From contig MGAO01000037.1 of NCBI GenBank assembly GCA_001788215.1, positions 30,273 to 92,495 of the forward strand: a stretch of DNA of 62,223 nucleotides. Direction: 5' to 3'. Positions 3-25,823 of the stretch are shown here, piece by piece. The DNA comes from Candidatus Roizmanbacteria bacterium RIFCSPLOWO2_01_FULL_40_14 (lineage in GTDB: Bacteria; Patescibacteriota; Microgenomatia; GCA-001788215; 2-01-FULL-40-14). The position numbers and the translations under genes are program-made. Position 1 is the first letter of the stretch, and every line of letters starts with the position of its first letter. The notes below the pieces were generated by a model. It worked only from the letters and a program-made list of their open reading frames with translations, did no database searches and was not told the origin of the DNA.

Positions 3-1130
3 GATGCCTTATTGCAGAGTGTAAAAGATAAAAAACAAATACTAAAAACGTTAATGGTCTATTTTAGTGTAATAATCCTTCTTGTTTTGACGGTATGGTT
101 ACTGATATTTACCGGAAATCTACTCTTTATCAATGAAGCTACTTCAGAGCATATTGCCATAGCAAAACGAAATTTTATACTTCCGAGTACTCTCCTATTT
201 GGTACCGTTGGTGCAATTATGATTTTATATTTCATAAAAAACAAGTTGCTTTATCGAGTAATTCTCACATCTCTGTTGCTGGTGGCAAGTTTTGACATGC
301 TTCGATTTGCCATGAAATGGATGCCCTTTGATGAAAGAGAATTTGTTTTTCCCTCGCTTCCTGTTCTGGAATATATGCAGAAAAATATTGGTATACATCG
401 GGTATATGGGCCGATTGGAAATGAAGCGTTACTACCCTTTGGGCTGCAAGGTATTGAAGGGTACGATCCACTGTATATTCGTCGATATGGAGAGCTTATT
501 CAAACAGCAACAGACGGAGTGATTCGTCCGCCTGAACGATCTGTCGTAAAACTAAACAATAGCGGAGTATATGCCAAGAAGTTGTTAGATTTGTTGGGAG
601 TCAAATATATTTTTTACTCGAAAGGGGATGGGAAAGGATCATGGGTGTTTCCTTTTTGGAACTATGAAGAAAGTATTAATCAGACACCGGTGTATCGCGA
701 TACTGTTTATGAATTGTATGAAAATAAGGATGTGTTCAATCGCGCCTTTATCGTGCATAATTATATCGTTGAAACTGACGATCAAAAGATCATAGACCGT
801 ATGTTTTCTACTGAGACAGATCTTTTGTCAACGGTCGTTCTTGAAAAAAATCCCCCCCTTACTCTAGAAAAATGTGATATTCAGGAAGAAGATGTAGTTG
901 ATATTGTGAGTTATACGCCAAATATTATTTCAATTAACCTTGAAACAGATTGTCCGGGAATACTTGTTTTGACTGACAACTATTATCCTGGATGGAAAGC
1001 CATAGTCAATGAAACAATAACACCTATATTACGGGCTAACTATACTTTTCGAGCTGTAGAAATCCCCGCGGGGGCCTCCCGTGTTGTCTACTCATTTAAT
1101 CCCTATGATTCAATTACGTCTACTAATTAA
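3..1130 (+). CDS. YfhO-like GT-C membrane glycosyltransferase, C-terminal half (5' partial; frame is open to the window edge)
   Basis: The frame stays open from nt 3. It is paralogous to the full-length ORF 4284..6560: shared AKRN(F/L)ILPS, D(M/L)LRF, EGYDPLY/SGYDPLY, and the C-terminal YYPGWKA...RANY..RAVEIPAG motif versus NWRVFIDG...RVNY..RGVIVPEG. Confidence 0.7.
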   Translation, partial: DALLQSVKDKKQILKTLMVYFSVIILLVLTVWLLIFTGNLLFINEATSEHIAIAKRNFILPSTLLFGTVGAIMILYFIKNKLLYRVILTSLLLVASFDMLRFAMKWMPFDEREFVFPSLPVLEYMQKNIGIHRVYGPIGNEALLPFGLQGIEGYDPLYIRRYGELIQTATDGVIRPPERSVVKLNNSGVYAKKLLDLLGVKYIFYSKGDGKGSWVFPFWNYEESINQTPVYRDTVYELYENKDVFNRAFIVHNYIVETDDQKIIDRMFSTETDLLSTVVLEKNPPLTLEKCDIQEEDVVDIVSYTPNIISINLETDCPGILVLTDNYYPGWKAIVNETITPILRANYTFRAVEIPAGASRVVYSFNPYDSITSTN

Positions 1131-3168
1131 AATAATTATTTTTCTCCAAATCTTATTAATTGCTTACTATAGTCGATCTGTATTCATGGATTCTTATGAT
1201 GCGGTATATTGGAAAGATCGCTTTGAACATTCTCAGTGGGTACTTCCACTTTCGAGACGGAGTATTGGAGATGATGCACTATTTTCATATGCCGGTCGCG
1301 AAATAGCATATGGAGCGGATCCTACATTTTCTATTGCGCAAGTGCCTCCGGTTGGAAAATATTTATTGGGATGGTCAATCAGATATTTTCGAAATTATGT
1401 GTGGTATACCTTTCTGATTGGTGTGGCAAGCACTGTTTTGTATTATTATATAGCGCGATTATTACTTCGGAATATAATGTTATCTCTGCTTGCCGTTATG
1501 TTACTTATCTTCGATCCTCTGTTTTTTTCACAGTTTACTGTTTCGTTACTTGATTTGACGCAGCTCTTTTTTTTGTTGGTGACGTTACTTTTTATCTTGT
1601 TAACAGTTAAAGTTAATTCAAAAACGGCGAATATTACCTCTCTTATCGCAGGAATCAGCCTGGGTCTCGCAGCACAAGTTAAAGTACCGCTTACCATTCC
1701 TGTAGTTTTTGTATTGTGTTGTTACTATCTCTATCGACGTAAAAATGCTCAAATAACTATTCTCTTTGTGATTTCGTCATTGTTAGGGTATGTGATACCT
1801 TATTTCGGCTTTTTCCTGAAGGGACATAGCTTCATGGAATTTATTAATATTACGCGTTATATGATCGGATTTTATCGCGAGTCAGAGCTGACGACTCATT
1901 GGGGCGCATTGTTATCAGTATTATTTAGGGGGAAATTTCCCCATATTGCTAGTGGAGAGTCAATTAAAGTTATTGAATGGTGGCTTATGTGGCCTATTTC
2001 TATCATCCTTTTTTTTGCGTTTCTGGTGAGCAGAAGAAAAATGTTTACTGCCGAATTTAAAGGAGTTGCATGGTATATCATTATAAGTTTGCTGATTTAC
2101 TTATCAATACCGGCGTTTCCTCGATATCTTTTAATTATCATTCCATTTCTTTATTTATTTGTCGTACGGTATATGAGCGGATTGAAGAAGAATTATTTAC
2201 TTATTCTTGTCGTCACGATAGCCTTCTATGGCATATTCAGCACGTATCGATTCCACTACCTCAAATCAATACAAGTAATTGATAACTACCTCTACAGTTT
2301 CTCTCATCAGTATTTTCATGATATATACAAGCAGTATATTGCTCATCCAGAAGATCTTAACCTCTCACGGGAAGAGTTTCACCAATTACTCCGAACTAGT
2401 CTCAATGATGCTCAGGTCAGAAATATTGTCGTTCATAAATTAAAACAGAGCATTCCATTTTTAGGTTCACGGGGATATGTCGAAGCGGAAATCACCTACC
2501 AAACGCAACATTTAGGATCATTTACCGAGAAAAAAATTATTCCGCTGGTAAAAACTCATGGTGAATGGTTGATAGAGTGGAATTGGGATTTGTTGGTCCA
2601 AGGATATCATCCTGAATATAAAATGGTATCTGCTATAGTTCGCGGAAAGCGCGGAGCGATTGTTGACCGTACGGGTACTGTCCTTGTTGAGGATCGGGAA
2701 GGATATCTTATTTCGGTTAATCCAAATTTACTTAATTATTCGTATGAGCAAGAGATGCTTGAGTTGATCGGCAATCTTGCTTCAGTTAAACCCGTACACG
2801 TGCAAAATGCATATCTAGAAGATCCGATTCCTGATAGGGCGGTTCCGGTTATTTCGACCTTTCGTATACCGACTGATATTGAAATGGAGACATTGACATC
2901 TTATCCAAGTGTTGAACTGGTACCGTATCAATCTCGAATATATAGCGGTATACCATCGACCGGTATTCACAACGTCAATTATGAAGAGTGTTGTACACGT
3001 CTCTATAGTTCTACAAACTATATGGGTATGGAATCCTTAGAATTACAGTATGACGATACCCTGCGCGGTGCAGATGGTGGTACCTTATTACTCACTGACA
3101 AAAATGGCTTTGCTATTCGTGTTATCCTAGATAAAGAGCCTATTATTGGTCAGGATGTACAGCTATGA
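1105..3168 (+). CDS. GT-C (PMT/GT39-like) membrane domain fused to a PBP2a-type NTF2-like plus PBP-dimerisation (pedestal) module, with no transpeptidase domain
   Basis: The N-terminal ~390 aa are polytopic, with the first-loop motif GDDALFSYAG...VPPVGKY (compare DE...HPPLGK of PMT/GT39). The C-terminal motifs HGEWLIEWNWDLLVQGY..VRGKRGAIVDRTGTVLVED...LQYDDTLRGADGG...GQDVQL-stop parallel MecA/PBP2a DGMWKLDWDHSVIIPGM..ERGKILDRNNVELA...GKDIQLTID. The stop overlaps the next ATG (ATGA). Alternative starts are GTG 1081 and ATG 1186. Confidence 0.7.
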   Translation: MIQLRLLIKIIIFLQILLIAYYSRSVFMDSYDAVYWKDRFEHSQWVLPLSRRSIGDDALFSYAGREIAYGADPTFSIAQVPPVGKYLLGWSIRYFRNYVWYTFLIGVASTVLYYYIARLLLRNIMLSLLAVMLLIFDPLFFSQFTVSLLDLTQLFFLLVTLLFILLTVKVNSKTANITSLIAGISLGLAAQVKVPLTIPVVFVLCCYYLYRRKNAQITILFVISSLLGYVIPYFGFFLKGHSFMEFINITRYMIGFYRESELTTHWGALLSVLFRGKFPHIASGESIKVIEWWLMWPISIILFFAFLVSRRKMFTAEFKGVAWYIIISLLIYLSIPAFPRYLLIIIPFLYLFVVRYMSGLKKNYLLILVVTIAFYGIFSTYRFHYLKSIQVIDNYLYSFSHQYFHDIYKQYIAHPEDLNLSREEFHQLLRTSLNDAQVRNIVVHKLKQSIPFLGSRGYVEAEITYQTQHLGSFTEKKIIPLVKTHGEWLIEWNWDLLVQGYHPEYKMVSAIVRGKRGAIVDRTGTVLVEDREGYLISVNPNLLNYSYEQEMLELIGNLASVKPVHVQNAYLEDPIPDRAVPVISTFRIPTDIEMETLTSYPSVELVPYQSRIYSGIPSTGIHNVNYEECCTRLYSSTNYMGMESLELQYDDTLRGADGGTLLLTDKNGFAIRVILDKEPIIGQDVQL

Positions 3169-4226
3169 AAATTGGTATTTATAATCCCTATTTGGATTCT
3201 CTTTCGGGTGGCGAACGGTATATGTTGACGATTGCATCGTGTTTGTCTCATCAACATGACGTTTCTGTTTTTTGGGACGATCACACTATTTTGAAAAAAG
3301 CACACGATCGGTTATCAATCGATTTAAAGAAGGTAACCGTGGCGCCCAATATTTTTGATCGAGGAATTCCTTTTCTCAAATCAATGGTTACTACTCCTCA
3401 ATATGATCTTATTGTTGTCTTATGTGACGGGAGTATTCCGTTTATAAATTCACCTGTCGGCATTCTTCATTTTCAAAGACCGTTTGCAGGAGTAGGCGGG
3501 TTTTCACTGGCTAATCAAATAAAACTTAAGAAGTATCAAAAAGTTATCTGCAATTCCCAATTTACTAAAAAATATATTGACCGGGAGTATCACGTAAAGT
3601 CAGAAATTATCTATCCTCCGGTAGATACCGATACTTTTAAAAATGCAAAAAAAGAAAACATGATACTTTCAGTCGGGAGATTTCATCCGTTTAAAAAACA
3701 TGAGATTATGATTCAAGCTTTTACTAACCTTAGTAAATCGTTGAAAGGATGGCGCTTGGTCATTGCAGGTGGACTTTTGCCCGATGACAAGGAGTATTAT
3801 TCTCAATTGACTCGTATGATAGAAATAGATTCCATTATTCTGTTGCCCAATCAACCGTTTTCATCTCTCAAAAAACTTTATGCAAAAGCAAAAATATACT
3901 GGCATGCGGCAGGATTTGGAGAAGATGAAAAAACCCACCCGGAGAACTTTGAGCATTTCGGAATTACCCCTGTTGAGGCAATGACCGCGGACTGTATTCC
4001 GGTCGTATTTAATGGTGGAGGATTACCGGAAATTATTACACACGAAACAAACGGATTTCTCTGGAATACCGTTGATGAGTTAATTTTGTATACTCGAAAG
4101 ATTGTACGAAATAACGAACTGAAAAAGAACATTATTGCTACGAATAAACTGCAAATACAACAATTTAGCCAAACTCATTTTTGTGACGAGATAAATAAAT
4201 TAGTGCTGTCATTGCGAGGAGTGTAA
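3165..4226 (+). CDS. GT4 family glycosyltransferase (Glycos_transf_1)
   Basis: C-terminal EX7E-type region EHFGITPVEAMTADCIPVVFNGGGLPEIITHETNGFLW. ATGA overlap with the upstream gene. Confidence 0.85.
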   Translation: MKIGIYNPYLDSLSGGERYMLTIASCLSHQHDVSVFWDDHTILKKAHDRLSIDLKKVTVAPNIFDRGIPFLKSMVTTPQYDLIVVLCDGSIPFINSPVGILHFQRPFAGVGGFSLANQIKLKKYQKVICNSQFTKKYIDREYHVKSEIIYPPVDTDTFKNAKKENMILSVGRFHPFKKHEIMIQAFTNLSKSLKGWRLVIAGGLLPDDKEYYSQLTRMIEIDSIILLPNQPFSSLKKLYAKAKIYWHAAGFGEDEKTHPENFEHFGITPVEAMTADCIPVVFNGGGLPEIITHETNGFLWNTVDELILYTRKIVRNNELKKNIIATNKLQIQQFSQTHFCDEINKLVLSLRGV

Positions 4227-4283: not shown

Positions 4284-6560
4284 ATGAAAAAAGAACTGTT
4301 ATATCCATTCATATTGATTTTAATCATTCTTATTTTCTTCTGGCAATTTATATTGAAAGGATTGTTGCCGATCCCGAGCGATACGATTGTTGGCCTCTAT
4401 CATCCGTATCGTGATTATTATGCTACTGAATATCCAAATGGCATTCCTTACCGAAATTTTCTTATCACCGATCCGGTTCGACAGCAGTATCCGTGGCGCT
4501 TTATTGCCATTGATCAAATGAAACAGGGGCAGTGGCCATCATGGAATCCCTATTCATTTTCCGGAACACCGCTTGCCGCCAATCTTCAGTCGGCACCCTT
4601 CTATCCATTAAATGTTCTTTTCTTTATGTTTCCCTTTCACATTTCCTGGACATTACTGATTATGTTACAACCCTTGTTAGCGGGACTCTTTCTCTATTTG
4701 TATTTACGGGAGATGAAACTATCAAATTATGCGGCACTTTTCGGGAGTATCGTATTTGCGTTTTCTGGTTTTAGCATAGCGTGGCTTGAGTGGAATACTC
4801 TTGGTCATGTTGGACTATGGTTGCCTCTTATTCTGTTATCTATTGAAAAGATTGTTAGGGTAATTAGGGGATTTAGGGTTAAAAACACAAAACAAATATA
4901 TCTATGGTCCGGAATACTGACGTTTTCACTCATTAGTTCGTTTTTTGGTGGACATTTACAAACATTTTTTTATGTGTTACTTACCAGTTTAGCCTATGGG
5001 ACCGTGCGAATAATACATGAAGTAAATGTAATACAAACAAAGGTAAGAAAAGCGGCAGTTTTTCTTGCGAGTTCAGCAATTCTTGCAGGGATTGTTACCT
5101 CTGTTCAGTGGGTGCCGATGGTTGAATTTATATCCAAATCAACGCGCTTAGCGGATCAATCAGATTGGCTCAGCGAAGGATGGTTTATACCGTTTCAACA
5201 TCTGATCCAATTTATCGTGCCCGACTTTTTCGGAAATCCGGCGACACTCAATTATTGGGGAACGTGGAATTATGGAGAGATGGTCGGGTACATTGGTATT
5301 ATTCCACTGCTATTTTCTCTCATAGCTCTTATGTGGCGCAGAGATAAAAAGACTCTTTTCTTTACTATATTGTTAATTATTTCGTTACTATTCGCAACTG
5401 ATAATTTTGTTGCAAGAATTCCCTATCAATTACAAATCCCCCTTCTCTCTACGAGTCAACCGACGCGATTATTATTTCTTGTCGACTTTTCAATTGCCGT
5501 TCTGGCGGCCTTAGGATTTGATCTCTTTCTCAGAAAAAAAGTTTCTATTAAAAAATTATTGGTGACTGTAGGAGTAATAGGAGGGATAGGGGTACTGTTG
5601 TGGGTATATGTATTGTTGGGATCGGGCGAAAATCTATTAGTTGCAAAAAGAAATCTGATATTACCAAGTGGGTTGTTCTTGATGGGGGTGTTGGGGAGTT
5701 TGGGGTATTTAGGAAAAAATCAACTTCTGAAGCATGCTGCACTGTTTGGCCTGATAGTTTTTACCGTAATTGATCTTCTCCGATTTGGGTGGAAGTTTAC
5801 GCCATTTACTCCACGGGAATATTTATTTCCACAAACTTCAACTATTCAGTTTATTACTTCACAGCCCGGAAAATTTCGAATAATGGCTACAGACAATAAA
5901 ATTCTGCCGCCCAATTTCTCAAGTATGTATGGCATAGAGTCAGTAAGTGGATATGACCCATTATACTCGCGCGATTATGCAGAATTAGCATCGGCTTGGT
6001 CCCGAAATACTCCAAATAATGAAGTTATTGATTTTAATCGTATCATTACGCCGGACAATTATGAAAGCAAAATTGCAGATGTGCTCAACGTTCAGTATGT
6101 ATTGAGCTTATCAGAAATCGATTCAGAAAAACTACATCTCGTTTTTGAAGAAGGACAGACAAAAGTATATGAAAATACAGAAGTACTTCCCCGTGTTTAT
6201 TTAGTTGAATCAGTGCAGACTGTTAAAAATGTAGAAGATATGCTGGATAAACTATTTGACGAGTCAATCGATTTACAGAAAACTGCCCTTGTTGAGTCAA
6301 ACACTATTCCCATTGATAATCGTCCCCTTTCTGAATTGGAGCATGTAGATATTACAGACTATTTACCATCCCGAGTGACATTGCAGTCGAAAACAGAAGC
6401 TTCCCGCATGATAGTTTTATCAGATGTCTATGATGAAAATTGGAGAGTCTTCATCGATGGAACAGAAAGTACATCGTATCGAGTAAACTATATACTGCGG
6501 GGTGTTATTGTTCCTGAAGGTTCTCATACGGTTGAATTTAGCTATTCAGTATTTAACTAA
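4284..6560 (+). CDS. YfhO family GT-C membrane glycosyltransferase (full length)
   Basis: 758 aa and polytopic. N-terminal motif P.SDTIVGLYHPYRDYY...ITDPVRQQYPW. C-terminal extracytoplasmic domain with GYDPLY, PRVYLV and YDENWRVFIDG...VPEGSHTVEFSY. Confidence 0.8.
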   Translation: MKKELLYPFILILIILIFFWQFILKGLLPIPSDTIVGLYHPYRDYYATEYPNGIPYRNFLITDPVRQQYPWRFIAIDQMKQGQWPSWNPYSFSGTPLAANLQSAPFYPLNVLFFMFPFHISWTLLIMLQPLLAGLFLYLYLREMKLSNYAALFGSIVFAFSGFSIAWLEWNTLGHVGLWLPLILLSIEKIVRVIRGFRVKNTKQIYLWSGILTFSLISSFFGGHLQTFFYVLLTSLAYGTVRIIHEVNVIQTKVRKAAVFLASSAILAGIVTSVQWVPMVEFISKSTRLADQSDWLSEGWFIPFQHLIQFIVPDFFGNPATLNYWGTWNYGEMVGYIGIIPLLFSLIALMWRRDKKTLFFTILLIISLLFATDNFVARIPYQLQIPLLSTSQPTRLLFLVDFSIAVLAALGFDLFLRKKVSIKKLLVTVGVIGGIGVLLWVYVLLGSGENLLVAKRNLILPSGLFLMGVLGSLGYLGKNQLLKHAALFGLIVFTVIDLLRFGWKFTPFTPREYLFPQTSTIQFITSQPGKFRIMATDNKILPPNFSSMYGIESVSGYDPLYSRDYAELASAWSRNTPNNEVIDFNRIITPDNYESKIADVLNVQYVLSLSEIDSEKLHLVFEEGQTKVYENTEVLPRVYLVESVQTVKNVEDMLDKLFDESIDLQKTALVESNTIPIDNRPLSELEHVDITDYLPSRVTLQSKTEASRMIVLSDVYDENWRVFIDGTESTSYRVNYILRGVIVPEGSHTVEFSYSVFN
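4855..4881. repeat. 3 x 9-bp tandem repeat TTAGGGNNN inside the YfhO CDS (translated VRVIRGFRV)
   Basis: TTAGGG starts at 4855, 4864 and 4873, an exact 9-nt period. A near-identical array lies at 23659..23685 in an unrelated gene and a different reading frame. Confidence 0.6.
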
Positions 6561-6564
6561 AGTT

Positions 6565-7587
6565 ATGACGGTATCTATTGTTATTCCCAATTATAACGGT
6601 GAGAAATTAATTAACAAGAATTTAGCGAACGTAATTCAAGTGATCAAAGGACCTGCCCGCATTGCTCTTGCCCGAAACGCTTCGCGTAACGATGCGAGCG
6701 GGACGCAAAGCGTCGCAGGCGGGTCAAGTGATCAAAGGATCAAAGAAATCATTATTGTCGACGACGCATCGAAAGATGGATCAATTGAAACAATTAGCAA
6801 ACAGCAAACAGCAAACAGAAATTTAACAATTATATTACTGCAGAATAAAAAGAATCTTGGATTTTCGTCGACGGTAAATCGTGGAATAGAAACTGCGACG
6901 GGTGATGTTGTCGTTTTATTAAACACGGATGTAGTTCCTGAAGAAAATTTCTTAAAAGCGGCGCTGCCACATTTTAATGATCCATTGGTATTTGCCGTCG
7001 GGTTTCTTGATAAAAGTATTGAGGGGAACAAAACAATTAAGCGGGGTAGAGGAATAGGATATTGGAACCGCGGATTTGTTCTCCATAAACGAGGAGAGGT
7101 TGACCAAACAGATACATTTTGGGTATCTTGCGGTTCAGGGGCATTCAGACGAGATATTTGGAACAAATTAAACGGACTCGATGAATTGTACAATCCATTT
7201 TATTGGGAAGACATTGATCTATCATATAGAGCGCAGAAATCGGGGTATAGAATTATTTTCGAACCAAAAAGCATTGTTATTCATGAGCATGGAATGGGTT
7301 CCATAAAATCGCACTATTCTGATAAACAAGTTACAACGATTGCTTACCGAAACCAATTTTATTTTGTGTGGAAAAATATCACTGATGGTAACTTATTATT
7401 ATCACATTTCTTCTGGCTTCCCAACCATATATTCCATGCCTTACTCGTAAACGATACTGTCTTTTTTTCCGCACTGTTTCAGGCAATTTTACATCTGCCA
7501 ACCGTTATTTTACACCGCAGGAGACAGAAGAAGTTATATAAAAGATCAGATATAGAATTGCTTACTTCTCCATCTGAACAAGATTAA
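6565..7587 (+). CDS. GT2 family glycosyltransferase carrying an in-frame GC-rich insertion
   Basis: MTVSIVIPNYNGE...IIIVDDASKDGS...VVLLNTDV...FYWEDIDLSYR. ATG 6565 lies just after the upstream stop. The ORF-track start 6502 overlaps the upstream gene and is less likely. Confidence 0.85.
   Translation: MTVSIVIPNYNGEKLINKNLANVIQVIKGPARIALARNASRNDASGTQSVAGGSSDQRIKEIIIVDDASKDGSIETISKQQTANRNLTIILLQNKKNLGFSSTVNRGIETATGDVVVLLNTDVVPEENFLKAALPHFNDPLVFAVGFLDKSIEGNKTIKRGRGIGYWNRGFVLHKRGEVDQTDTFWVSCGSGAFRRDIWNKLNGLDELYNPFYWEDIDLSYRAQKSGYRIIFEPKSIVIHEHGMGSIKSHYSDKQVTTIAYRNQFYFVWKNITDGNLLLSHFFWLPNHIFHALLVNDTVFFSALFQAILHLPTVILHRRRQKKLYKRSDIELLTSPSEQD
6652..6723. repeat. GC-rich structured mini-insertion lying in frame inside the GT2 CDS
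   Basis: This ~72-bp block is far more GC-rich than its surroundings. It is flanked by the 16-bp direct repeat TCAAGTGATCAAAGGA (6636-6651 and 6724-6739). An internal 11-bp stem pairs ACGCTTCGCGT (6677-6687) with ACGCAAAGCGT (6703-6713), 10 of 11 positions. It sits between the NYNG and VDDAS motifs, where GT2 enzymes normally have about 25-30 aa; here there are about 60. Confidence 0.65.
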
Positions 7588-10848: not shown

Positions 10849-11577
10849 ATGGCACGGATAAGCAAACTCAGTATTATTGTTCCCGTTTTTAATGAAGAAA
10901 AAACTATACAAGATATTCTGAAACATTTGTTGGAACTTTCTCTTCCTGACAATATACCATTTGAAATTATAGTAGTAAATGATGGATCTACCGATGGCAC
11001 CTATGAACTGATTTCTCAAATCTCAAAAAAAAATAAAAAGATTAGTCTACTCAATCATGAGCAAAATGAAGGAAAAGGAGCCGCAGTCCGGACCGGAATA
11101 AAAAAGGCAGCCGGTGACTATATTATCATTCAAGATGCAGATCTCGAATATGACCCCCAGTATATTTCAACATTACTGTTAGAGCTTAAAAAGAATGCGA
11201 TTGATGTGGTATATGGAACTCGTCTTCACCGGCTTCCTCATTTAGATAAGGAAGAAAGTCGTGCGCGATTTCTTATACATTATTTCGGTAATCGATTTTT
11301 AAGTCTTATAACCAGCCTGTTGTATGGGCAATGGATTACGGACATGGAGACATGCTACAAACTATTTCCACGATCTGCCGTTGCCAACATGAAACTAGAA
11401 TCACGAGGTTTTGAGTTTGAACCGGAAATTACTGCTAAACTTATGAAACAAAGACATCGTATTCATGAAGTACCTATTACCACGGTTCCGCGTGGTTATG
11501 AAGAAGGGAAAAAACTCAACACCGTACGCGATGGCATTCGAGCATTTCTTACCTTAATTAAATATCGATTTACATAG
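10849..11577 (+). CDS. GT2, DPM1-like polyprenyl-phosphate sugar synthase
   Basis: LSIIVPVFNEE...EIIVVNDGSTDGT...GKGAAVRTG...IIIQDADLEYDP. It is small (242 aa) and soluble, and sits next to GT-C genes. Confidence 0.8.
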   Translation: MARISKLSIIVPVFNEEKTIQDILKHLLELSLPDNIPFEIIVVNDGSTDGTYELISQISKKNKKISLLNHEQNEGKGAAVRTGIKKAAGDYIIIQDADLEYDPQYISTLLLELKKNAIDVVYGTRLHRLPHLDKEESRARFLIHYFGNRFLSLITSLLYGQWITDMETCYKLFPRSAVANMKLESRGFEFEPEITAKLMKQRHRIHEVPITTVPRGYEEGKKLNTVRDGIRAFLTLIKYRFT

Positions 11578-11672: not shown

Positions 11673-12944
11673 ATGAAACAGATGAGAATCAACCGTTCAA
11701 TAAAACTCGACAGCATCCTCCTTCTTGCGCTAGCCGTTCCGTTTATTATGACGTACCCGTTACGTGTTGAAGGGACGTCGTATGTTTTATTCACCTCAAT
11801 ATTTATTACCTTACTTCTCTATATTGTTTGTGATCTGTTCGCTCTCTCAAAAAAAACATACGCCATTGTTAAAATAGGATTACTGTCACTCGCGATATTT
11901 CTCATTCTTGGTAGCTCATTTCGTGCCGCCATTATACGGCGGCATCAAATATCACCCGTATTTGAGGTGCATGACATGCCAATTCAGATTGAATTAGGCC
12001 TCCAGTATTTGTTACGTGGAAAAAATCCTTACTCAGAGGATTATGTCGGCACGCCTCTTGAAGAATGGCATTTTGATGATACTGCCACGAATCCGGCCAT
12101 TTACCATTTTGTGATGGGCCCCTTTTATCTTCTGATGTCTATACCGGTGTATCTGGTAAGCAATCGGTTGTTTGGATACTTTGATGCACGATTACCTCTG
12201 TACCTTCTCTATGGAGCACTTATGCTTATGGCTGGATTATTGGTTAAAGATATACACAAAAAACTAGTATTTATTATCTTGCTGGCCTTTAGTCCTGCTA
12301 TTTTAAATTATGTTCTCGAAGGAAGAACTGATGTTGCCGTGCATGCATTTTTGTTTCTCGGGTGGTTTCTGTTATACAAAAATAAATTTATAGCAGGTGG
12401 TATTTCTCTTGCCATTGCGTTTACGATAAAACAGTCAGCATGGCCGCTTTTCCCCTTATACGCAGTATGGTTATTTTCTCAAACACCATCAAAGCAGAGG
12501 ATCCTGTCTCGAATCGGACAAACCATTGTGCAACTGATCCCGTTTACGGTAACATTTACCGCTATAATGCTCCCGTTTTACTTGTGGGATCCCAATAGTT
12601 TTATGGAAGACACAATTTCCTATTTATCAGGAACCATTCCGACAAGTTATCCCATATCCGGATATGGACTGGGAATGCTCCTTTCCGAATTAGGTTTTAT
12701 TACTAACCGGATAGCATACTACCCGTTCATTATTTGGCAAATACTAATCGTTCTGCCCGTACTATTTTTTCTTACCCGCTATCTTATCAAACAACCGACG
12801 GTTAAACGGATGATAGTTTCTTACGGTATTCTCCTCTTTGTCTATTGGTATTTGTCCCGTTATTTCAATAATAGTCATCTTGGATATATTTCATTGGTTT
12901 TTATAACGGCATACTTTTGGCCCGAACATGAAAAAACCGACTAG
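11673..12944 (+). CDS. Polytopic membrane protein, GT87/DUF2029-like putative mannosyltransferase (GT-C)
   Basis: It starts at ATG 11673 (MKQMRINRS). The ORF-track extension from 11583 only translates the palindromic element. GKNPYSEDY...YHFVMGPFYLL and about 11 TM segments resemble DUF2029-type GT-C proteins. This assignment is from memory. Confidence 0.5.
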   Translation: MKQMRINRSIKLDSILLLALAVPFIMTYPLRVEGTSYVLFTSIFITLLLYIVCDLFALSKKTYAIVKIGLLSLAIFLILGSSFRAAIIRRHQISPVFEVHDMPIQIELGLQYLLRGKNPYSEDYVGTPLEEWHFDDTATNPAIYHFVMGPFYLLMSIPVYLVSNRLFGYFDARLPLYLLYGALMLMAGLLVKDIHKKLVFIILLAFSPAILNYVLEGRTDVAVHAFLFLGWFLLYKNKFIAGGISLAIAFTIKQSAWPLFPLYAVWLFSQTPSKQRILSRIGQTIVQLIPFTVTFTAIMLPFYLWDPNSFMEDTISYLSGTIPTSYPISGYGLGMLLSELGFITNRIAYYPFIIWQILIVLPVLFFLTRYLIKQPTVKRMIVSYGILLFVYWYLSRYFNNSHLGYISLVFITAYFWPEHEKTD

Positions 12945-14031
12945 TCGAAAATACGAAATAGGATTATCATTTTTTGAAGGAGTAGGTCCTATTCGATATC
13001 GATCACTTATCAACTATTTTGGTTCTGCTTCAGCGGTGTTTAAAGCATCGGACACCGATTTAATAAAATCAGGATTCGGAGACAATTTTATTGAAAAGTT
13101 CACCTCATTTCGTCAAAAAACAAATCTCAATGCTCTTTCATATGATATTCAAAAAAAGAATATTCAGGTACTTACTCAAGAAGATGATGAATATCCCGAT
13201 TTATTAAAAGAAATTCCCAGCGCTCCTTTTATATTATACGCATTAGGGGATATGTCTTTTTTACATGATGAATTGCCGATTGGAATTGTTGGCACGCGCC
13301 AGCCGACACGTTATGGTATTGAAGTTACCCGGATATTTACTGAAAAATTAGTTCATGCGGGATGTACGATTATTTCAGGTATGGCGATGGGAATAGACGC
13401 AATTGCACATAAGACAGCAATGAATGAGAAAGGAAGAACCGTAGCTGTCTTGGGATGTGGTGTTGATATTTGTTATCCGGCAGTAAATCGAGCCATTTAC
13501 GACCGGCTCAAGACAGACGGGCTTATTATTTCCGAATTTCCACCTGGTATGAGGACCTCAATAGGAGTTTTTCCTTCACGCAATCGAATTATTGCGGGAT
13601 TGTCGCGCGGAGTTTTAGTAACCGAAGGCACCGACAAATCGGGATCATTGATCACTGCGAAAAACGCGGCGGAGTTTGGCCGCGATGTATTTGCTATTCC
13701 CAGTCCCATCACTTCTCAGATGGGTAAAGCAAGTCTCATTCTTATCCAAAACGGTGCTCAAGCAGTAGGAGATGCCAATGATATATTGCAGGAATATTCT
13801 GAAGTGTCGAAGCGTATAGCTCAAGAAACAAAGGCGGCTTCTCTTATATCGTTATCATTCGATGAAAAGCGTATTGTCGGGCTGATTACTCAGGAAGGGT
13901 CAGTGCACGTGGATTCATTGGTGCGAACGATATCAATGTCATCAGCCGAAGTGTTGGCTATTGTTTCACGATTGGAAATGTCCGGAGTTGTATCAGAAAT
14001 AGAAGAGGGCGTCTATACGATTCGAATTTAA
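12928..14031 (+). CDS. dprA: DNA-processing protein DprA (Smf)
   Basis: IGIVGTRQPTRYG...GCTIISGMAMGIDAIAHK...TVAVLGCGVDICYP..N...ISEFPPG......FPSRNRIIAGLS.GVLVTEG...SGSLITA, plus a C-terminal winged-helix-like tail. Confidence 0.9.
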   Translation: MKKPTSRKYEIGLSFFEGVGPIRYRSLINYFGSASAVFKASDTDLIKSGFGDNFIEKFTSFRQKTNLNALSYDIQKKNIQVLTQEDDEYPDLLKEIPSAPFILYALGDMSFLHDELPIGIVGTRQPTRYGIEVTRIFTEKLVHAGCTIISGMAMGIDAIAHKTAMNEKGRTVAVLGCGVDICYPAVNRAIYDRLKTDGLIISEFPPGMRTSIGVFPSRNRIIAGLSRGVLVTEGTDKSGSLITAKNAAEFGRDVFAIPSPITSQMGKASLILIQNGAQAVGDANDILQEYSEVSKRIAQETKAASLISLSFDEKRIVGLITQEGSVHVDSLVRTISMSSAEVLAIVSRLEMSGVVSEIEEGVYTIRI

Positions 14032-14032
14032 T

Positions 14033-15649
14033 ATGAAACCCACATACTTTCTCATTATTGTTATTCTACTTTCCGCCCTGCTCCGTTTTATCAATCTATC
14101 CACCATGCCGCCGAGTCTTTCGTGGGATGAAGTTTCATTCGGATACAACGCATGGTCGATTCTCAAAACAGGAAAGGATGAATATGGAACGCCTTACCCT
14201 TTTTTGTTCCGGGCATTTGATGAATATAAACAGCCGGGTCTTGTATATCTTACTGTAGTATCAGAAGCCATATTTGGACTTAATGAGTTTGCCGTCCGGT
14301 TTCCCGTTGCCATCTCAGGAGTTGGCATTGTGATCTATTTGTATTTGATAGGTAAGAAATTGGTACATGAGAAATTCGGCATCTTGTTTGCATTCTTAGG
14401 TGCTATCAATCCGTGGCTTATTAATTTTTCACGGCAGGGGTTTGAAAGTACGGTCAGCCTTTTTTTTGTTACGGTAGGAATATATTATTTGCTCAACTTT
14501 AAGCAACGAGGTCGCAATTTTCTCATCAGTGCATCGCTAATTGCAATTTCCACCTATTTTTATCATGCGACCCGCATCATAACGCCGATTATTCTAGCTG
14601 CATTTGCGTTTGCGTACAGAAAAGAATTGCTGAAACAAAAAAAAGAAGTATTTCAGGGATTTATCATTGGCTTGATCGTTCTTATTCCCTTGTTCATTTT
14701 CGCTTTTTCAAACCAAGGATTATCCCGTCTTAATCAAGTTTTGTTAACGGACGATGTTGTCTATATTCAAAAACAAGAACGCTATGCCCAGAAAATTCTC
14801 GAGAATAACAATGCGTGGTGGGCGCGCATCGTATATAACCGTAGACGTGCATTTGCTGAAACGGCTACTATTAATTATTTCAGGAATATTCATCCCGTAC
14901 ACGTATTTCAATCGGGGACCATATCAGCAGGTCTTCTGTATCAGTGGGAATTGCCATTCTTTTTGTTCGGTTTATATTATTTGATCAAAGAAAAAAAGAA
15001 GTGGAAGTGGATTGTGTTAACGTGGCTTATTATTCATCCTCTCGCTGGCGCATTTACCAAAGACCAGCCGAATGTACTCAGGACTCTTATTGGTGCTCCG
15101 CCGATGATTATGACGAGTGCCTTAGGAGTCTGGTGGATTTACCACGTCTTAACAAATTATCGATTAAAACTTGTTTTTGCCGGAGTACTTGCTTTAGTCA
15201 TCGTATATTTTTCATATCAGTTTCTCTACAACTATTTTGTGACTGCTCCTGAAACGAGAGCTGTTGATTTTGGAGACGGACACAAACAACTCGCCGCATA
15301 TCTTCAGTCCGAACAGGAAAATTATGATATGATATGGGTAACGGGTGATTACTGGCGTCCGTATATCCATTTGCTATTTCATTTATCAGTTGATCCCGAA
15401 TTCTATCAACAGTCAGGAACACGCGACGGATTTGGTAAATTCAGGTTTGGGAATGCAGATTGGGACACAGAAGGAATTGATTTGCAAAAAGTCTCCTTGG
15501 ACGAACTGATCAAACCTGATTCAAAAACGCTTTTTGTATTGTCGCCGAAGGAATATCAACATCATGTGAGTACGGGTCAGACATTTACAACCACTACTAC
15601 TATTAATGGACTATACGCACGGTATGTTTTTTATGCAGTGACGTTATAA
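14033..15649 (+). CDS. PMT_2/GT39-like GT-C glycosyltransferase (paralogue 1 of 5)
   Basis: LRFINLSTMPPSLSWDEVSFGYNAWSILKTGKDEYG...FDEYKQPGLVYL...EFAVRFP...INPWLINFSRQGFES...YNRRR...APP, with WVTGDYWRPYIHLLF in the C-terminal domain. Confidence 0.75.
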   Translation: MKPTYFLIIVILLSALLRFINLSTMPPSLSWDEVSFGYNAWSILKTGKDEYGTPYPFLFRAFDEYKQPGLVYLTVVSEAIFGLNEFAVRFPVAISGVGIVIYLYLIGKKLVHEKFGILFAFLGAINPWLINFSRQGFESTVSLFFVTVGIYYLLNFKQRGRNFLISASLIAISTYFYHATRIITPIILAAFAFAYRKELLKQKKEVFQGFIIGLIVLIPLFIFAFSNQGLSRLNQVLLTDDVVYIQKQERYAQKILENNNAWWARIVYNRRRAFAETATINYFRNIHPVHVFQSGTISAGLLYQWELPFFLFGLYYLIKEKKKWKWIVLTWLIIHPLAGAFTKDQPNVLRTLIGAPPMIMTSALGVWWIYHVLTNYRLKLVFAGVLALVIVYFSYQFLYNYFVTAPETRAVDFGDGHKQLAAYLQSEQENYDMIWVTGDYWRPYIHLLFHLSVDPEFYQQSGTRDGFGKFRFGNADWDTEGIDLQKVSLDELIKPDSKTLFVLSPKEYQHHVSTGQTFTTTTTINGLYARYVFYAVTL

Positions 15650-15652
15650 AAT

Positions 15653-17392
15653 ATGACAGCTCGAACATCATTATTTGTTCGCTTTCTTAAAACACTCCCT
15701 TGGAAACAGATTCTTCTTTTTACCTTTCTTTTCAGTATATTTCTTCTCAATGCATTTCACGAAGAATATCCTGACGAATATGACAATATCGTCGGCGGGA
15801 AATATATTTTAGAAGGAAGATTGCCCTATCGTGATTGGTTTTCCCACCATCAACCGCTACCGTACTTTTTATCGTCTGGCATACTCGCAGTGACCGGAAT
15901 ATCATTTGTACGTTTTCGAATAGGACTCGCTATTGTCTATTTTCTGATCACTGCTGGATCGTACCTTCTTTTAAAGAAACGAATACAACAATCAAGCCTT
16001 TCATTCTATTTATATTTTTTGTTCACCATTGCTTTCGGCGCGACGTATTATTGGGGAAATATGCTCCTTGCGGATACGCTTTCCGCCTATTTTCTCGCTC
16101 CTGCCATAATTCTTGTATTGGTAAAAGGATATACCCATGAGCCCTTTACCTTGCGTGATCTAATTCTCTATATACTCTATACCTTTCTTGCATGGCTTTC
16201 ATCGATGACGATTACCTATTTGATCGCCGGATTGCATGTGTACGCCGTATATTTATTTATTCGAAACGGAAAAGTTCTATCGAAAAAGTTACTTCTAAAA
16301 AAAGTTGTGCAGATTGCGATGGTATTTGCTATACCCTATATTGTATGGATGCTCTATTTTCTGGTAACAGGCAGTATGAGATCATATTATTTTGATACTA
16401 TTACGTTCAACCAGCAGTATTATATTTATAACTATCCGCTTGAGCCCGGGGGATCGATAAATCCCATTCGGTATGCGCTTATTATTGCCCACGACTTTAT
16501 TAATAATTTTTTTCCGGTTATCGGATCAGTCAAAAATTTGGCGTTTGATTTTCCCTTAGTTAACACATTTGCTATGTCACATATAGCCTTTATGGTAATT
16601 CTGCTCATAACAAGACGATACGTTCTGATATATCCTTATTTGGTATTGTTAGTGTACTCAAATACGCGTAGTAATCCTGCATCAATAGCAGAAACTGATT
16701 ATCAAGTTAACGTATATATTTTCTTATCCATGATTGTGGGTCTCTATTCATTCCAAATTCTAAAACAGCTTCTTGATACTCAAACACTAACCAAATCTTT
16801 TCGGATCCTCGCGGGAAGCGTTTTTGTTTTGCTCAGCGCCTATTGGTTTTTCACGAGTATATTTTTACCACTTAAGTTTTTTCAAAAATTTATGGCAAAG
16901 TACAGCGGACAGTCTCCCCTTATTTATGATCATCCGGAAGTTGCACCGATCGTCAATCAAATCGCAGGAAGTGATGAGTATGCATGGATAGGTCCTCTTG
17001 CGTTTAAAGAATTGCTCTATCTTGATGCCCGACAGCCTTCAAAATATCACTGGTTTTTAAATCACTCGGCGAAATCAGAAAAGATACGATCTGAAATTGT
17101 TTCGGACCTCACGCAGAATCGGCCGAAAGTTATTGTCTTTAATCGTGACTACACGCCCTGGGGAGGAGATGCGGCAAGTTACAATTCGTTTTTTACCGAT
17201 TTTGTGGATGATCATTATTTTAGAATATTTACCCTCAACGAAGAGTTAGATGGCTACGCATATAAATGGAAAATCTCCAGAACACAAAATTTTGACATCG
17301 ACGGTTATTTTTATTTTGATCGAAATAGACAAGACGAGATTATACAAGAACTTCTTGATAAGGGATTAATTGAGCAGGTGGATGTTTCTTAA
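15653..17392 (+). CDS. Uncharacterised polytopic membrane protein, probable GT-C (HHQ-motif family; paralogue of 7562..9130)
   Basis: The first-loop motif EEYPDEYDNIVGGKYILEGRLPYRDWFSHHQPLPYF, about 11 TM segments, and a soluble C-terminal domain of about 170 aa. Confidence 0.5.
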   Translation: MTARTSLFVRFLKTLPWKQILLFTFLFSIFLLNAFHEEYPDEYDNIVGGKYILEGRLPYRDWFSHHQPLPYFLSSGILAVTGISFVRFRIGLAIVYFLITAGSYLLLKKRIQQSSLSFYLYFLFTIAFGATYYWGNMLLADTLSAYFLAPAIILVLVKGYTHEPFTLRDLILYILYTFLAWLSSMTITYLIAGLHVYAVYLFIRNGKVLSKKLLLKKVVQIAMVFAIPYIVWMLYFLVTGSMRSYYFDTITFNQQYYIYNYPLEPGGSINPIRYALIIAHDFINNFFPVIGSVKNLAFDFPLVNTFAMSHIAFMVILLITRRYVLIYPYLVLLVYSNTRSNPASIAETDYQVNVYIFLSMIVGLYSFQILKQLLDTQTLTKSFRILAGSVFVLLSAYWFFTSIFLPLKFFQKFMAKYSGQSPLIYDHPEVAPIVNQIAGSDEYAWIGPLAFKELLYLDARQPSKYHWFLNHSAKSEKIRSEIVSDLTQNRPKVIVFNRDYTPWGGDAASYNSFFTDFVDDHYFRIFTLNEELDGYAYKWKISRTQNFDIDGYFYFDRNRQDEIIQELLDKGLIEQVDVS

Positions 17393-17395
17393 GGT

Positions 17396-22490: not shown

Positions 22491-22491
22491 C

Positions 22492-25811: not shown

Positions 25812-25823
25812 TTCATAAATTAC

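Follow-up and report, generated by a model that had tools for sequence, protein, structure and literature searches.

The window analysed here is a 62-kb stretch of DNA (62,223 nucleotides), and all nucleotide coordinates are positions within it. The gene of interest lies at 1105..3168 on the forward strand, as do all features described below, and encodes a 687-aa fusion of a GT-C glycosyltransferase with the non-catalytic module of a penicillin-binding protein (PBP). Its open reading frame can begin at GTG 1081 or ATG 1105; public gene calls use GTG 1081, giving 695 aa, and an ortholog (P0002, 687 aa, 87% identity) starts at the equivalent of ATG 1105. Upstream, the C-terminal part of a 765-aa YfhO-family protein is encoded at 12..1130, where the window edge cuts the gene, and overlaps the fusion start. 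Downstream lie three conserved neighbours: a GT4 glycosyltransferase (3165..4226), whose ATG at 3165 overlaps the fusion stop TGA 3166-3168 (ATGA), a YfhO-family GT-C protein (4284..6560) and a GT2 glycosyltransferase (6502..7587). The block fusion-GT4-YfhO-GT2 recurred in this order at 8 of 16 tabulated loci in addition to the window and was rearranged in L004, and at every locus examined the fusion gene was located in a surface-glycan cluster. The island also holds Wzx-type flippases and GT2 enzymes resembling polyprenyl-phosphate-sugar synthases; one of these, a small GT2 (10849..11577) similar to polyprenyl- and dolichyl-phosphate sugar synthases (AglJ, PpgS), is a possible donor supplier, with all such matches falling below the curated cut-offs.

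Residues 1-357 (1105..2175) constitute the GT-C core, TM1-TM10, delimited by Pfam PMT/PMT_2 matches, by AF2 models searched with Foldseek, and by the ends of stand-alone sister proteins. Pfam PMT (PF02366) scored 33.9 bits against a cut-off of 22.7 over residues 100-212 (profile positions 87-203 of 245), and PMT_2 scored 18.5 bits on the fusion protein. A model of the core alone (pLDDT 86, pTM 0.89) matched ArnT (5f15, E = 2.5e-5, TMq 0.60) and Pmt4 (9i5k, TMq 0.61), together with PglB, STT3 and AglB (TMq 0.50-0.61 across ArnT, PglB, AglB, STT3 and PMT), followed by ALG9, PimE, AftB and Emb; at the level of sequence the core matched no solved GT-C. Judged from the modelled fold, helices 1-10 are a GT-C(A)-fold glycosyltransferase. 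The sequence-only reading had described this domain as PMT/GT39-like, which holds for fold and superfamily. It does not hold for GT39 proper, because MIR and PMT_4TMC gave no Pfam match in the fusion protein at E <= 1 and the best structural matches were spread over ArnT, PglB/STT3 and Pmt4. The loop between TM7 and TM8 spans only ~55 residues in the AF2 model. There was no Pfam match to FTSW_RODA_SPOVE, and no SEDS, RodA or FtsW structure appeared among the 50 fold matches listed.

The AF2 model contains 11 transmembrane helices, the last of which is separated from TM10 by a loop of ~4 residues. TM11 and its stalk form one helix (residues 362-400, 2188..2304) that corresponds to the N-terminal membrane anchor of class B PBPs, and NCBIfam alignments to PBP4(5) and MecA began at query residues 365-366, corresponding to model positions 8-14. 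In this topology the K/R-rich loops at 122, 169-173, 211-213, 310-312 and 361-362 are cytoplasmic, which bears out the proposal that the PBP-like module is extracytoplasmic.

The soluble part begins with an NTF2-like domain of the MecA_N type (residues 392-497, 2278..2595), recognised by conserved D406, Y408, W488, W492 and W494 and by profile matches to B. subtilis PBP3 (BsPBP3) and PBP2a. The MecA_N profile (PF05223) scored 14.4 bits here, with a cut-off of 22, and exceeded that cut-off in relatives (33.6 bits in P0111 and 29.3 bits in P0103). It is followed by the PBP pedestal (PBP_dimer; residues 514-687, 2644..3165), detected by Pfam, phmmer, profile searches and Foldseek; PF03717 scored 50.1 bits against a cut-off of 24.4 over residues 514-672. 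R516-G517..D, R611-x-Y613 and G641..E646..L..G were matched by eye and presumably correspond to three motifs of the class B N-terminal module; the fusion family retains R516-G517, R611 and the G641..E646 stretch. In the loop before the third pedestal motif (pLDDT 56-83) lies a family-specific E628-C629-C630 motif (2986..2994). The ectodomain has no cysteines other than C629-C630, and CC was found in 76 of 152 representatives, the set of clusters at <=50% identity to which all residue counts out of 152 refer.

The resemblance of this region to MecA/PBP2a had been proposed motif by motif, and a phmmer search of the PDB reproduced every motif pair that had been quoted: PBP2a was matched at E = 2e-6, with query residues 394-687 aligned to chain residues 7-301. 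A family profile of the C-terminal module gave stronger matches, to B. subtilis PBP3 (7bn9, E = 1.3e-30, chain residues 25-327), to PBP2a (E = 1e-21, from chain residue 3) and to Enterococcus PBP4/5 (3e-18), and it also found MrdA. Foldseek placed the C-terminal ~315 residues of the full-length AF2 model (pLDDT 90, pTM 0.86) on PBP2a, PBP5fm and BsPBP3 at E ~1e-14, and the structural matches included PBP2a entries 3zfz and 3zg5, which hold muramic acid or a peptidoglycan analogue at the allosteric site. Taken together, Pfam, profiles and AF2 with Foldseek support the architecture first suggested from the translation, a GT-C core followed by an NTF2-like domain and a pedestal with no transpeptidase. 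From helix 11 through the NTF2-like domain to the pedestal, the protein contains in full the non-catalytic half of a class B PBP of the PBP3/PBP2a/PBP5 type, captured with its membrane anchor and cut exactly at the start of the transpeptidase. Literature searches found no publication describing a GT-C plus PBP-pedestal architecture, in agreement with the initial impression that it was new.

Searches at E <= 1e-30 returned 464 clusters of fusion homologs, found solely in Levy-, Roizman- and Gottesmanbacteria (uncultured Microgenomates, CPR). The best 150 of the 464 had full-length representatives of 640-734 aa that contained both modules, none with a transpeptidase. Two relatives, L021 and L028, were in pieces.

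The last strand of the pedestal, G682-Q-D684-V-Q-L687 (3148-3165), aligned with GKDIQL of PBP2a, and the phmmer alignment stopped there. All 35 aligned homologs terminated 0-8 residues past G-x-D-[VI]-x-L, confirming that the protein ends at the boundary between pedestal and transpeptidase. No transpeptidase domain (PF00905; SxxK, SxN, KTG) was detected in the fusion protein by Pfam search. Because of this, of the end at the GKDIQL-equivalent strand and of the length of the listed homologs (<=734 aa), the fusion protein is not a PBP. Its abrupt end at a domain boundary, along with the fragmented state of L021 and L028, might be taken to indicate a truncated pseudogene, a misassembly in which the transpeptidase region was lost, or a chance resemblance. 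However, three deposited assemblies carried an identical fusion gene followed by the same GT4, the 35 shared ends and the uniform length of the best 150 clusters recur across the family, and E-values for the PBP module spanned 1e-13 to 1e-30 in Pfam and profile searches. The artefact explanation is thus refuted, its probability being practically nil, and the C-terminal end is native, as had been argued from the overlap with the next gene.

Sister GT-C cores of 360-400 aa were identified in Microgenomates, and these stop directly past TM10, without TM11 or an ectodomain; therefore, the fusion added the PBP membrane anchor together with the ectodomain. The sister cores share with the fused forms a signature in the first extracytoplasmic loop (EL1), YWK.R..SQW....S...IGDDGL.Y.G ... 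PP[VL]GKY. They also conserve D150 and K193 at 90% or more and carry in their consensus a PRYLL motif that holds R340-Y341. They too occur in GT2/GT-C/YfhO clusters, but with a synteny unlike that of the fused form, and none of 42 assemblies contained both stand-alone and fused forms.

EL1 (residues 25-98, 1177..1398) was the most conserved region of the fusion family (mean column identity 0.72). At 0.55-0.58 versus 0.53, the PBP-like half equals the membrane half in conservation, which speaks for an architecture that is native and under selection. EL1 contains R52 and the two motifs first picked out by eye, GDD at residues 55-57 (1267-1275) and PPVGK at residues 81-85 (1345-1359). D56 and R52 were each invariant (152/152), whereas position 57 was D in 97 representatives and E in a further 16. 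Other invariant residues of the core fall within 1552..2127: D150 (1552-1554; 150/152), K193 (1681-1683; 151/152) and R340-Y341 (2122-2127; 151/152 and 152/152, respectively). The conserved acidic loop (D56, with D150, K193 and R340/Y341) faces the cell exterior. D56 is a candidate catalytic base of the GT-C core, and we infer that D150, K193 and R340-Y341 are ligands of the donor phosphate or of a metal.

Comparison of the two models suggested a relationship between this loop and the added module. When the module was omitted, the pLDDT of EL1 residues 41-60 decreased from 81-83 to 51-54 while the transmembrane helices stayed at 95-97 (model alignments of 35 versus 21 sequences). Moreover, of eight positions whose conservation is restricted to the fused forms, four (E41, H42, L47 and R52) lie inside this segment and are missing from the sister cores; R52 was present in 152/152 fused forms versus 4% of stand-alone cores. 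The catalytic loop therefore appears, on modelling grounds, to depend on the PBP-derived module, though the fused-specific residues could instead reflect a different acceptor rather than an interface. These observations also bear on whether the module is a mere scaffold, namely a spacer, stabiliser or oligomerisation domain lacking specificity for a ligand or partner. Such a role would fit the Pfam name "dimerisation domain", the dimeric state of PMT-type GT-C enzymes (Pmt1-Pmt2 and Pmt4 homodimer entries were among the fold matches) and the mostly fold-determining nature of the kept motifs. It is distinctly unlikely, however, given that the aromatic and charged surface-type residues D406, Y408, W488 and W492 are nearly invariant across the 152 clusters, that fused-specific residues occur in the catalytic loop, and that stand-alone cores manage without such a domain.

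In class B PBPs the pedestal is a contact surface for RodA/FtsW, MreC and FtsQLB, and the anchor helix is a main SEDS contact. Through the module, the glycosyltransferase could accordingly attach in trans to SEDS polymerases, to MreC or to divisome proteins, and glycosylation would then be coupled spatially to peptidoglycan synthesis. In keeping with this, all three class B motifs are kept (by the same visual match) and the module is under purifying selection. Against it, neither the 62-kb window nor the Pfam-annotated flanks (+/-10 kb) of four homologs contained a gene for a SEDS protein, MreC, a Mur protein or a transpeptidase; at another 43 loci the screen used just the HMM of the pedestal module and six proteins of the window. 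In addition, the former PBP anchor is tied to the GT-C bundle, against which it presumably packs, and the EL1 evidence indicates an intramolecular partner. We regard docking in trans as unlikely, although it is compatible with action in cis and the two are not mutually exclusive. The same survey of loci weighs on a split PBP, in which the pedestal would recruit a separate transpeptidase-only protein and so rebuild a class B PBP on a glycosyltransferase platform. Orphan transpeptidase-only and pedestal-only proteins, sometimes in tandem, are reported from various bacteria in a survey (PMC12516126). However, PF00905 was absent within +/-10 kb at the Pfam-annotated loci and from the window, and the overlapping downstream gene encodes a GT4, making this arrangement very improbable.

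We therefore prefer a model in which the PBP-derived module is an extracytoplasmic acceptor-binding or regulatory domain acting in cis, with SEDS docking less likely. Action in cis is favoured by the lack of SEDS-type genes in the window and around the four Pfam-annotated homologs, the short TM10-TM11 tether and the EL1 dependence taken together, and also by the pTM of 0.86 for the two-module model and the fused-specific residues inside EL1. The pTM value argues for a defined mutual orientation of the two modules, and the ~4-residue tether of the former PBP anchor to TM10 suggests that the GT-C itself fills the place of the SEDS partner. By analogy with the GT-C superfamily, the 11-helix enzyme would take a sugar from a polyprenyl-phosphate carrier, possibly supplied by GT2 enzymes and flippases encoded in this island, and pass it to an extracytoplasmic acceptor of the cell envelope. 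The module would sit over the GT-C active site, where the C-terminal periplasmic domains of PglB and ArnT are found. There, as the model confidence values suggest, it may touch EL1 and contribute to acceptor recognition, transferase gating or both, in effect mirroring within one chain the relationship between pedestal and polymerase in SEDS-bPBP pairs. Since muropeptide is bound by the homologous region of PBP2a, peptidoglycan or a glycopolymer attached to it would be the likeliest acceptor; this step is the least certain, and no neighbouring gene singles out peptidoglycan. As a whole, a GT-C enzyme whose PBP-derived module acts in cis on an envelope acceptor is the best explanation, and we place its probability slightly above even. 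A more specific version, in which the NTF2-like domain and pedestal are a portable control unit for membrane glycan synthases and here allosterically gate, or feed acceptor to, a non-SEDS (GT-C) transferase acting directly on peptidoglycan or nascent wall glycan, is quite unlikely as it stands.

The class B PBP pedestal is currently regarded as the switch for SEDS peptidoglycan polymerases and as the surface on which they dock. For PBP2a, PBP5 and PBP3, we know of no settled function of the NTF2-like extension. The combination of a GT-C enzyme with a non-catalytic PBP half suggests that the PBP module can serve enzymes beyond peptidoglycan synthases. Transplantation of the anchor, NTF2-like domain and pedestal onto another glycosyltransferase superfamily, with the transpeptidase discarded, in a large and strongly conserved family shows that the module has a function separable from cross-linking. 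The fusion also provides a single-chain system for studying communication between pedestal and glycosyltransferase. To our knowledge, Microgenomates possess very large genomic islands of GT-C enzymes and essentially uncharacterised cell walls, and the fusion family marks an unexplored step of envelope-glycan assembly in these organisms. If the acceptor is peptidoglycan, the fusion would represent a novel kind of enzyme that modifies the wall; if the control-unit version is true, it would be an unrecognised cell-wall-modifying machine in the CPR and an intramolecular model of SEDS-bPBP activation.

Among known systems, PBP3 (B. subtilis PbpC), PBP2a/MecA (S. aureus) and PBP5/PBP4 (Enterococcus) have the same order and length of membrane anchor, NTF2-like domain and pedestal. 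The fusion differs from them in lacking the transpeptidase, in the 10-TM glycosyltransferase that precedes the anchor and in the E-C-C loop; it is found in Patescibacteria, whereas these comparators belong to Bacillota. ArnT (GT83), PglB/AglB/STT3 (GT66) and PMT (GT39) share the core fold, a long EL1 that carries an invariant Asp and a soluble domain after the last transmembrane helix on the outer face. In contrast to these enzymes, the fusion has a core of only 10 helices and a soluble domain of PBP origin, and it lacks MIR, PMT_4TMC and WWDYG-type domains. The arabinosyltransferases EmbA/B/C and AftD combine GT-C cores with carbohydrate-binding modules and build a peptidoglycan-attached polymer. 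They resemble the fusion in pairing a GT-C core with a large extracytoplasmic domain, in weak fold matches and in a genomic neighbourhood rich in GT-C paralogs, one of them an MptA_B_family gene. Their accessory domains are unrelated (CBM versus NTF2-like plus pedestal) and the Emb/Aft proteins are much larger, so that the likeness is an analogy of design without accessory homology; in EmbC, the C-terminal lectin-like module is an extracytoplasmic acceptor-binding domain (PMC3044687). Pedestal proteins lacking a transpeptidase number 2572 InterPro entries, with "Bacteria incertae sedis" among the groups, and the fusion shares with them PF03717 without PF00905; the survey text consulted gives for these a count and a phylum list and describes no GT-C fusion, function or family (PMC12516126). 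Single-chain SEDS-bPBP chimeras exist but are rare, indicating that such pairs can be fused (PMC12516126). The fusion differs from these in that its membrane enzyme is a GT-C, its transpeptidase is missing and its context is not dcw or mrd, but it has in common with them a polytopic membrane glycosyltransferase joined to the anchor helix and pedestal of a class B PBP.

The open reading frame of the fusion gene starts at 1081 (GTG) or 1105 (ATG) and ends at 3168 on the + strand. The 687-aa numbering was adopted because the start of the closest ortholog (P0002, 687 aa, 87% identity) corresponds to the ATG at 1105. Pfam PBP_dimer (PF03717) matched residues 514-672 with 50.1 bits (cut-off 24.4), and the scan of the fusion protein returned no Transpeptidase match. 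Positions 8-337 of the NCBIfam PBP4(5), MecA and MecD models aligned to residues 365-687, a span that begins at the membrane anchor and covers the rest of the non-catalytic half to its end. When PDB sequences were searched with phmmer, PBP2a chain positions 7-301 aligned to residues 394-687 (E = 2e-6), and this alignment reproduced every motif pair proposed by the sequence-only reading (fusion/PBP2a: WLIEWNW/WKLDWDH, KRGAIVDRTG/KRGKILDRNN, LELQYDDTLRG/LEKLYDKKLQ, GQDVQL/GKDIQL). A profile of the C-terminal module built from 17 family members matched B. subtilis PBP3 (7bn9) with E = 1.3e-30 (profile positions 7-303, chain 25-327), followed by PBP2a (1e-21), Enterococcus PBP4/PBP5 (3e-18) and MrdA-type PBP2 (~1e-7). 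These matches bear out the PBP-like assignment of the C-terminal module. Its MecA_N component stood less evenly: the Pfam score on residues 392-497 was 14.4 bits, under the cut-off of 22, but more distant family members exceeded the cut-off (33.6 and 29.3 bits). Three N-module motifs that we take to typify class B PBPs (RG..D; R.Y; G..G.E....L.G) seem by eye to be kept, and we know of no conservation of the PBP2a allosteric-site residues even among PBP2a, PBP5 and PBP3. The fusion contains a genuine homolog of the non-catalytic half of MecA_N-type class B PBPs, and because it lacks a transpeptidase it is not itself a PBP.

A search with the same profile for the nearest true class B PBPs returned only five proteins. 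P0184 and P0186 are contig-edge fragments of the fusion family, and the N-terminus of P0185 reads straight out of a GT-C core. Within the ectodomain, the only cysteines lie in an E628-C629-C630 motif (nt 2986..2994), located in a low-confidence model loop just ahead of the third pedestal motif. The motif is family-specific: true PBPs lack it, and about half of the representatives have it. Its cysteines could possibly form a vicinal disulfide, or the motif could bind a metal. A second-tier subfamily (P0111, P0113, P0125, P0161, P0178 and P0037; 660-690 aa) has kept a GT-C core together with a clear MecA_N domain; in these proteins the pedestal falls below significance for Pfam PBP_dimer, and the final 50-60 residues depart from the profile of the main family.

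The end of the protein was examined against the possibility that a frameshift, misassembly or pseudogenization had removed a transpeptidase. The stop codon (TGA, 3166-3168) is overlapped by the ATG of the following gene at 3165. Three deposited assemblies, which may have reads in common, encode an identical fusion protein with the same GT4 gene behind it (ENA ERZ27254749, ENA ERZ909595 and NCBI GCA_964502165.1). When 1.84 billion representatives were searched exhaustively with a profile, 464 clusters were found at E <= 1e-30, and the best 150 of these were all <=734 aa. In 35/35 aligned members the C-terminus lies 0-8 residues past the strand G-x-D-[VI]-x-L. Of 152 representatives, 139 keep G682 of this strand and 111 keep D684, with N in a further 28. 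The three assemblies and the family evidence together exclude a frameshift or a lost transpeptidase, and the native end that had been proposed at the pedestal/transpeptidase boundary is upheld. Window G+C is ~38% throughout, and an Rfam scan of the window found no RNA match. Two relatives are split, one at L021 3959..6048 (ORFs of 144 + 299 aa) and one at L028 5941..8018 (ORFs of 164 + 447 + 132 aa), and are either pseudogenes or assembly indel errors.

A word-indexed search identified 36 full-length homologs (687-713 aa, 29-87% identity), all 36 carrying PF03717 and variably PMT, PMT_2 or MecA_N. Pooling these with the profile hits gave 150 full-length relatives with both modules (640-734 aa); the domain order sought in protein databases is shared by these proteins. 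On one-genome-per-species contigs, relatives were located at 43 loci. Where a record title is informative, it gives Levybacteria/Levyibacteriota, Gottesmanbacteria, Microgenomates or Patescibacteria group, and among named orthologs the nearest belongs to Roizmanbacteria. The gene is specific to Patescibacteria, and the many MAG titles reading 'uncultured Gammaproteobacteria bacterium' (L010, L013-L015, L017, L018 and others) look like placeholder taxonomy and are unfit for distribution statements, while L021, titled 'Pacearchaeota archaeon', is probably a mis-binned contig. Database entries call the homologs 'phospholipid carrier-dependent glycosyltransferase', 'glycosyltransferase family 39 protein' or 'NTF2-like N-terminal transpeptidase domain-containing protein'.

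For the membrane half, Pfam PMT matched residues 100-212 with 33.9 bits (cut-off 22.7), PMT_2 was sub-threshold (18.5 bits), and neither MIR nor PMT_4TMC was matched in the fusion protein. An AlphaFold2 model of the full-length protein (35-sequence alignment; mean pLDDT 90, pTM 0.86) shows 11 long helices followed by a mixed alpha/beta ectodomain, with the last helix (residues 362-400) forming a stalk from the membrane into the ectodomain. The best 50 Foldseek matches of the whole model in the PDB were PBP2a, PBP5fm and BsPBP3 only (E ~1e-14, ~315 aligned columns), in line with the sequence assignment. A model of the core (residues 1-392; pLDDT 86, pTM 0.89) matched ArnT (5f15, E = 2.5e-5, TMq 0.60), Pmt4 (9i5k, TMq 0.61) and PglB, STT3 and AglB (TMq 0.50-0.58), with weaker matches to ALG9, PimE, AftB, Emb and AftD, indicating that the membrane part is a GT-C(A)-fold glycosyltransferase. 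The placement comes from fold search, as a sequence profile of the membrane module found no PDB match even at E <= 10. A SEDS-like polymerase identity was rejected, since there was no Pfam SEDS match and no SEDS protein among the fold matches listed for the core. The fold, an aspartate in the first extracytoplasmic loop (EL1, residues 25-98) and the Pfam PMT match together make the protein a GT-C superfamily member. The earlier label 'PMT/GT39-like' is right only for the fold and the superfamily; the protein is not a strict GT39 PMT, because the MIR and 4TMC domains are absent.

The model helices span residues 2-22, 99-121, 124-136, 150-169, 172-190, 198-212, 215-238, 295-309, 316-334, 339-357 and 362-383. 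Short K/R-rich loops (R122; K169/K173; R211-R212-K213; R310-R311-K312; K361-K362) lie on the cytoplasmic side, and this layout is predicted to place EL1 and the PBP-like module outside, as had been expected for the module. To our knowledge EL1 is on the outer face in all GT-C enzymes.

Conservation was measured over 152 full-length representatives (pairwise identity <=50%). D56, R52 and Y341 are invariant (152/152), S43, K193 and R340 are conserved in 151/152, D150 in 150/152 and Q44 in 149/152. In the PBP-like half, W488 (149/152), W492 (148/152), Y408 (147/152), G659 (145/152), G517 (142/152), D406 (140/152, +12 E) and R611 (135/152) are similarly retained. Mean column identity was 0.55-0.58 for the PBP-like half, 0.53 for the membrane half and highest, 0.72, for EL1; both halves of the fusion are under strong purifying selection. 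The obvious candidate for the catalytic base is D56, which lies in EL1. D150, K193 and R340/Y341 are putative donor-phosphate or metal ligands, roles that we presume from the enzymology of ArnT, PglB and PMTs.

The fusion occurs at ~17 loci and a 360-400-aa stand-alone core at ~25 loci. Stand-alone cores carry the same EL1 signature and end directly after the tenth membrane helix (TM10), so the fusion consists of such a 10-TM core to which TM11, an NTF2-like domain and a pedestal have been joined. The added part is the N-terminal half of a class B PBP including its anchor; in agreement, the NCBIfam alignments begin at residue 365-366. In a pattern-based scan by accession prefix of 42 assemblies, which include incomplete MAGs, none held both forms (0/42), and a Rosetta-stone test found no separately encoded pedestal protein or class B PBP within +/-6 kb of stand-alone cores. 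Another ArnT/PMT_2-like GT-C is the conserved neighbour of these cores. The stand-alone operon (L025-L052; e.g. L034 3951..10933, L039 4079..10978) is distinct and conserved, with the order GT2 (polyprenyl-P-sugar-synthase-like), 390-400-aa polytopic protein, core, 505-515-aa ArnT/PMT_2-like GT-C and YfhO.

The 62-kb window is in its entirety a glycan-biosynthesis island, placing the fusion gene in a surface-glycan context. Many GT2 and GT4 genes accompany two YfhO genes and two Wzx-type flippases, and the island also encodes methyltransferases, epimerases, a DegT aminotransferase, a polysaccharide deacetylase and a carbamoyltransferase. GT-C-type genes number at least 15, including more than ten of PMT_2/PMT/PTPS_related type and one of the MptA_B family. 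Eight consecutive polytopic ORFs of 538-580 aa form a tandem GT-C paralog array (14033..27533, +), some with a PMT_2, PMT or PTPS_related match and others with no Pfam match; further GT-C genes lie at 4284, 9283 (-), 28733 (MptA_B family), 29965, 37559 and 43922 (-). Several GT2 proteins align full-length, below curated cut-offs, to polyprenyl-/dolichyl-phosphate sugar synthases (AglJ, PpgS, PgfS, ArnC). The GT2 that follows YfhO downstream (6502..7587, +) has a ~30-residue low-complexity Ala/Ser/Arg-rich insertion (…ARIALARNASRNDASGTQSVAGGSSDQR…) between its first beta-strand motif and its DDAS motif, and its Pfam match is broken into two stretches. A gene for DprA (DNA-processing protein A; 12928..14031, +) sits amid the otherwise unbroken island, and in the same place in a 151-kb scaffold and at L001/L002. 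A small DUF5652 gene (74-80 aa) adjoins the fusion gene at the loci of two distant homologs, L006 9716..9940 (-) and L007 12132..12374 (-), and is absent beside the window fusion.

The block fusion-GT4-YfhO-GT2 is found in the same order in the window and at 8 of the 16 tabulated fusion loci, and at L004 it lies on the opposite strand in a rearranged order. Neither the window nor the Pfam-annotated +/-10 kb around four homologs contains a SEDS, Mur, MreC or transpeptidase gene; at the remaining loci the screen used only the pedestal-module HMM and six proteins of the window. The sequence-only reading proposed that the module could dock the glycosyltransferase in trans onto the wall-synthesis machinery. 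Such docking would be compatible with action in cis and is less likely; none of the results supports it, and the gene context does not point to that machinery.

A 2025 survey counts 2572 InterPro proteins with a pedestal and without a transpeptidase and describes SEDS-bPBP chimeras, its main text making no mention of a GT-C plus pedestal fusion (PMC12516126). No description of such a protein was found in the literature searched, consistent with the earlier view that the architecture is undescribed. Public databases already list the fusion proteins, with generic names and precomputed matches to both Pfam domains, so the sequences are known; the architecture is undescribed and uncharacterised as far as found. 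The combination should surprise cell-wall specialists and offers a single-chain handle on pedestal function, an interest tempered by uncultured hosts and a function that is still putative.

The protein combines a GT-C fold, whose intact acidic loop faces outward, with a PBP3/PBP2a-type anchor, NTF2-like domain and pedestal on the outer side. Its donor would be a polyprenyl-phosphate-sugar and its acceptor a cell-envelope component. We favour a reading in which the PBP-derived module acts in cis, because of the short tether, the pTM of the model, a drop in EL1 confidence and EL1 residues specific to fused forms. The former PBP anchor is linked to TM10 by ~4 residues, which would put the GT-C core in the place a SEDS protein has beside a class B PBP anchor, and the pTM of 0.86 indicates a defined predicted orientation between the two halves. 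EL1 residues 41-60 have pLDDT 81-83 with the module and 51-54 without it (35- and 21-sequence alignments, respectively), the TM helices holding at 95-97 in both models. Eight positions are conserved in fused but not stand-alone forms, and four of them (E41, H42, L47, R52) fall in this EL1 segment. The most attractive acceptor, speculatively, would be peptidoglycan or a wall-attached polymer, because the homologous PBP2a region binds muramic acid and peptidoglycan analogues; the corresponding structures (3zfz, 3zg5) are among the Foldseek matches listed. In PglB, ArnT and STT3, acceptor-side periplasmic domains occupy the position held here by the soluble domain of the fusion.
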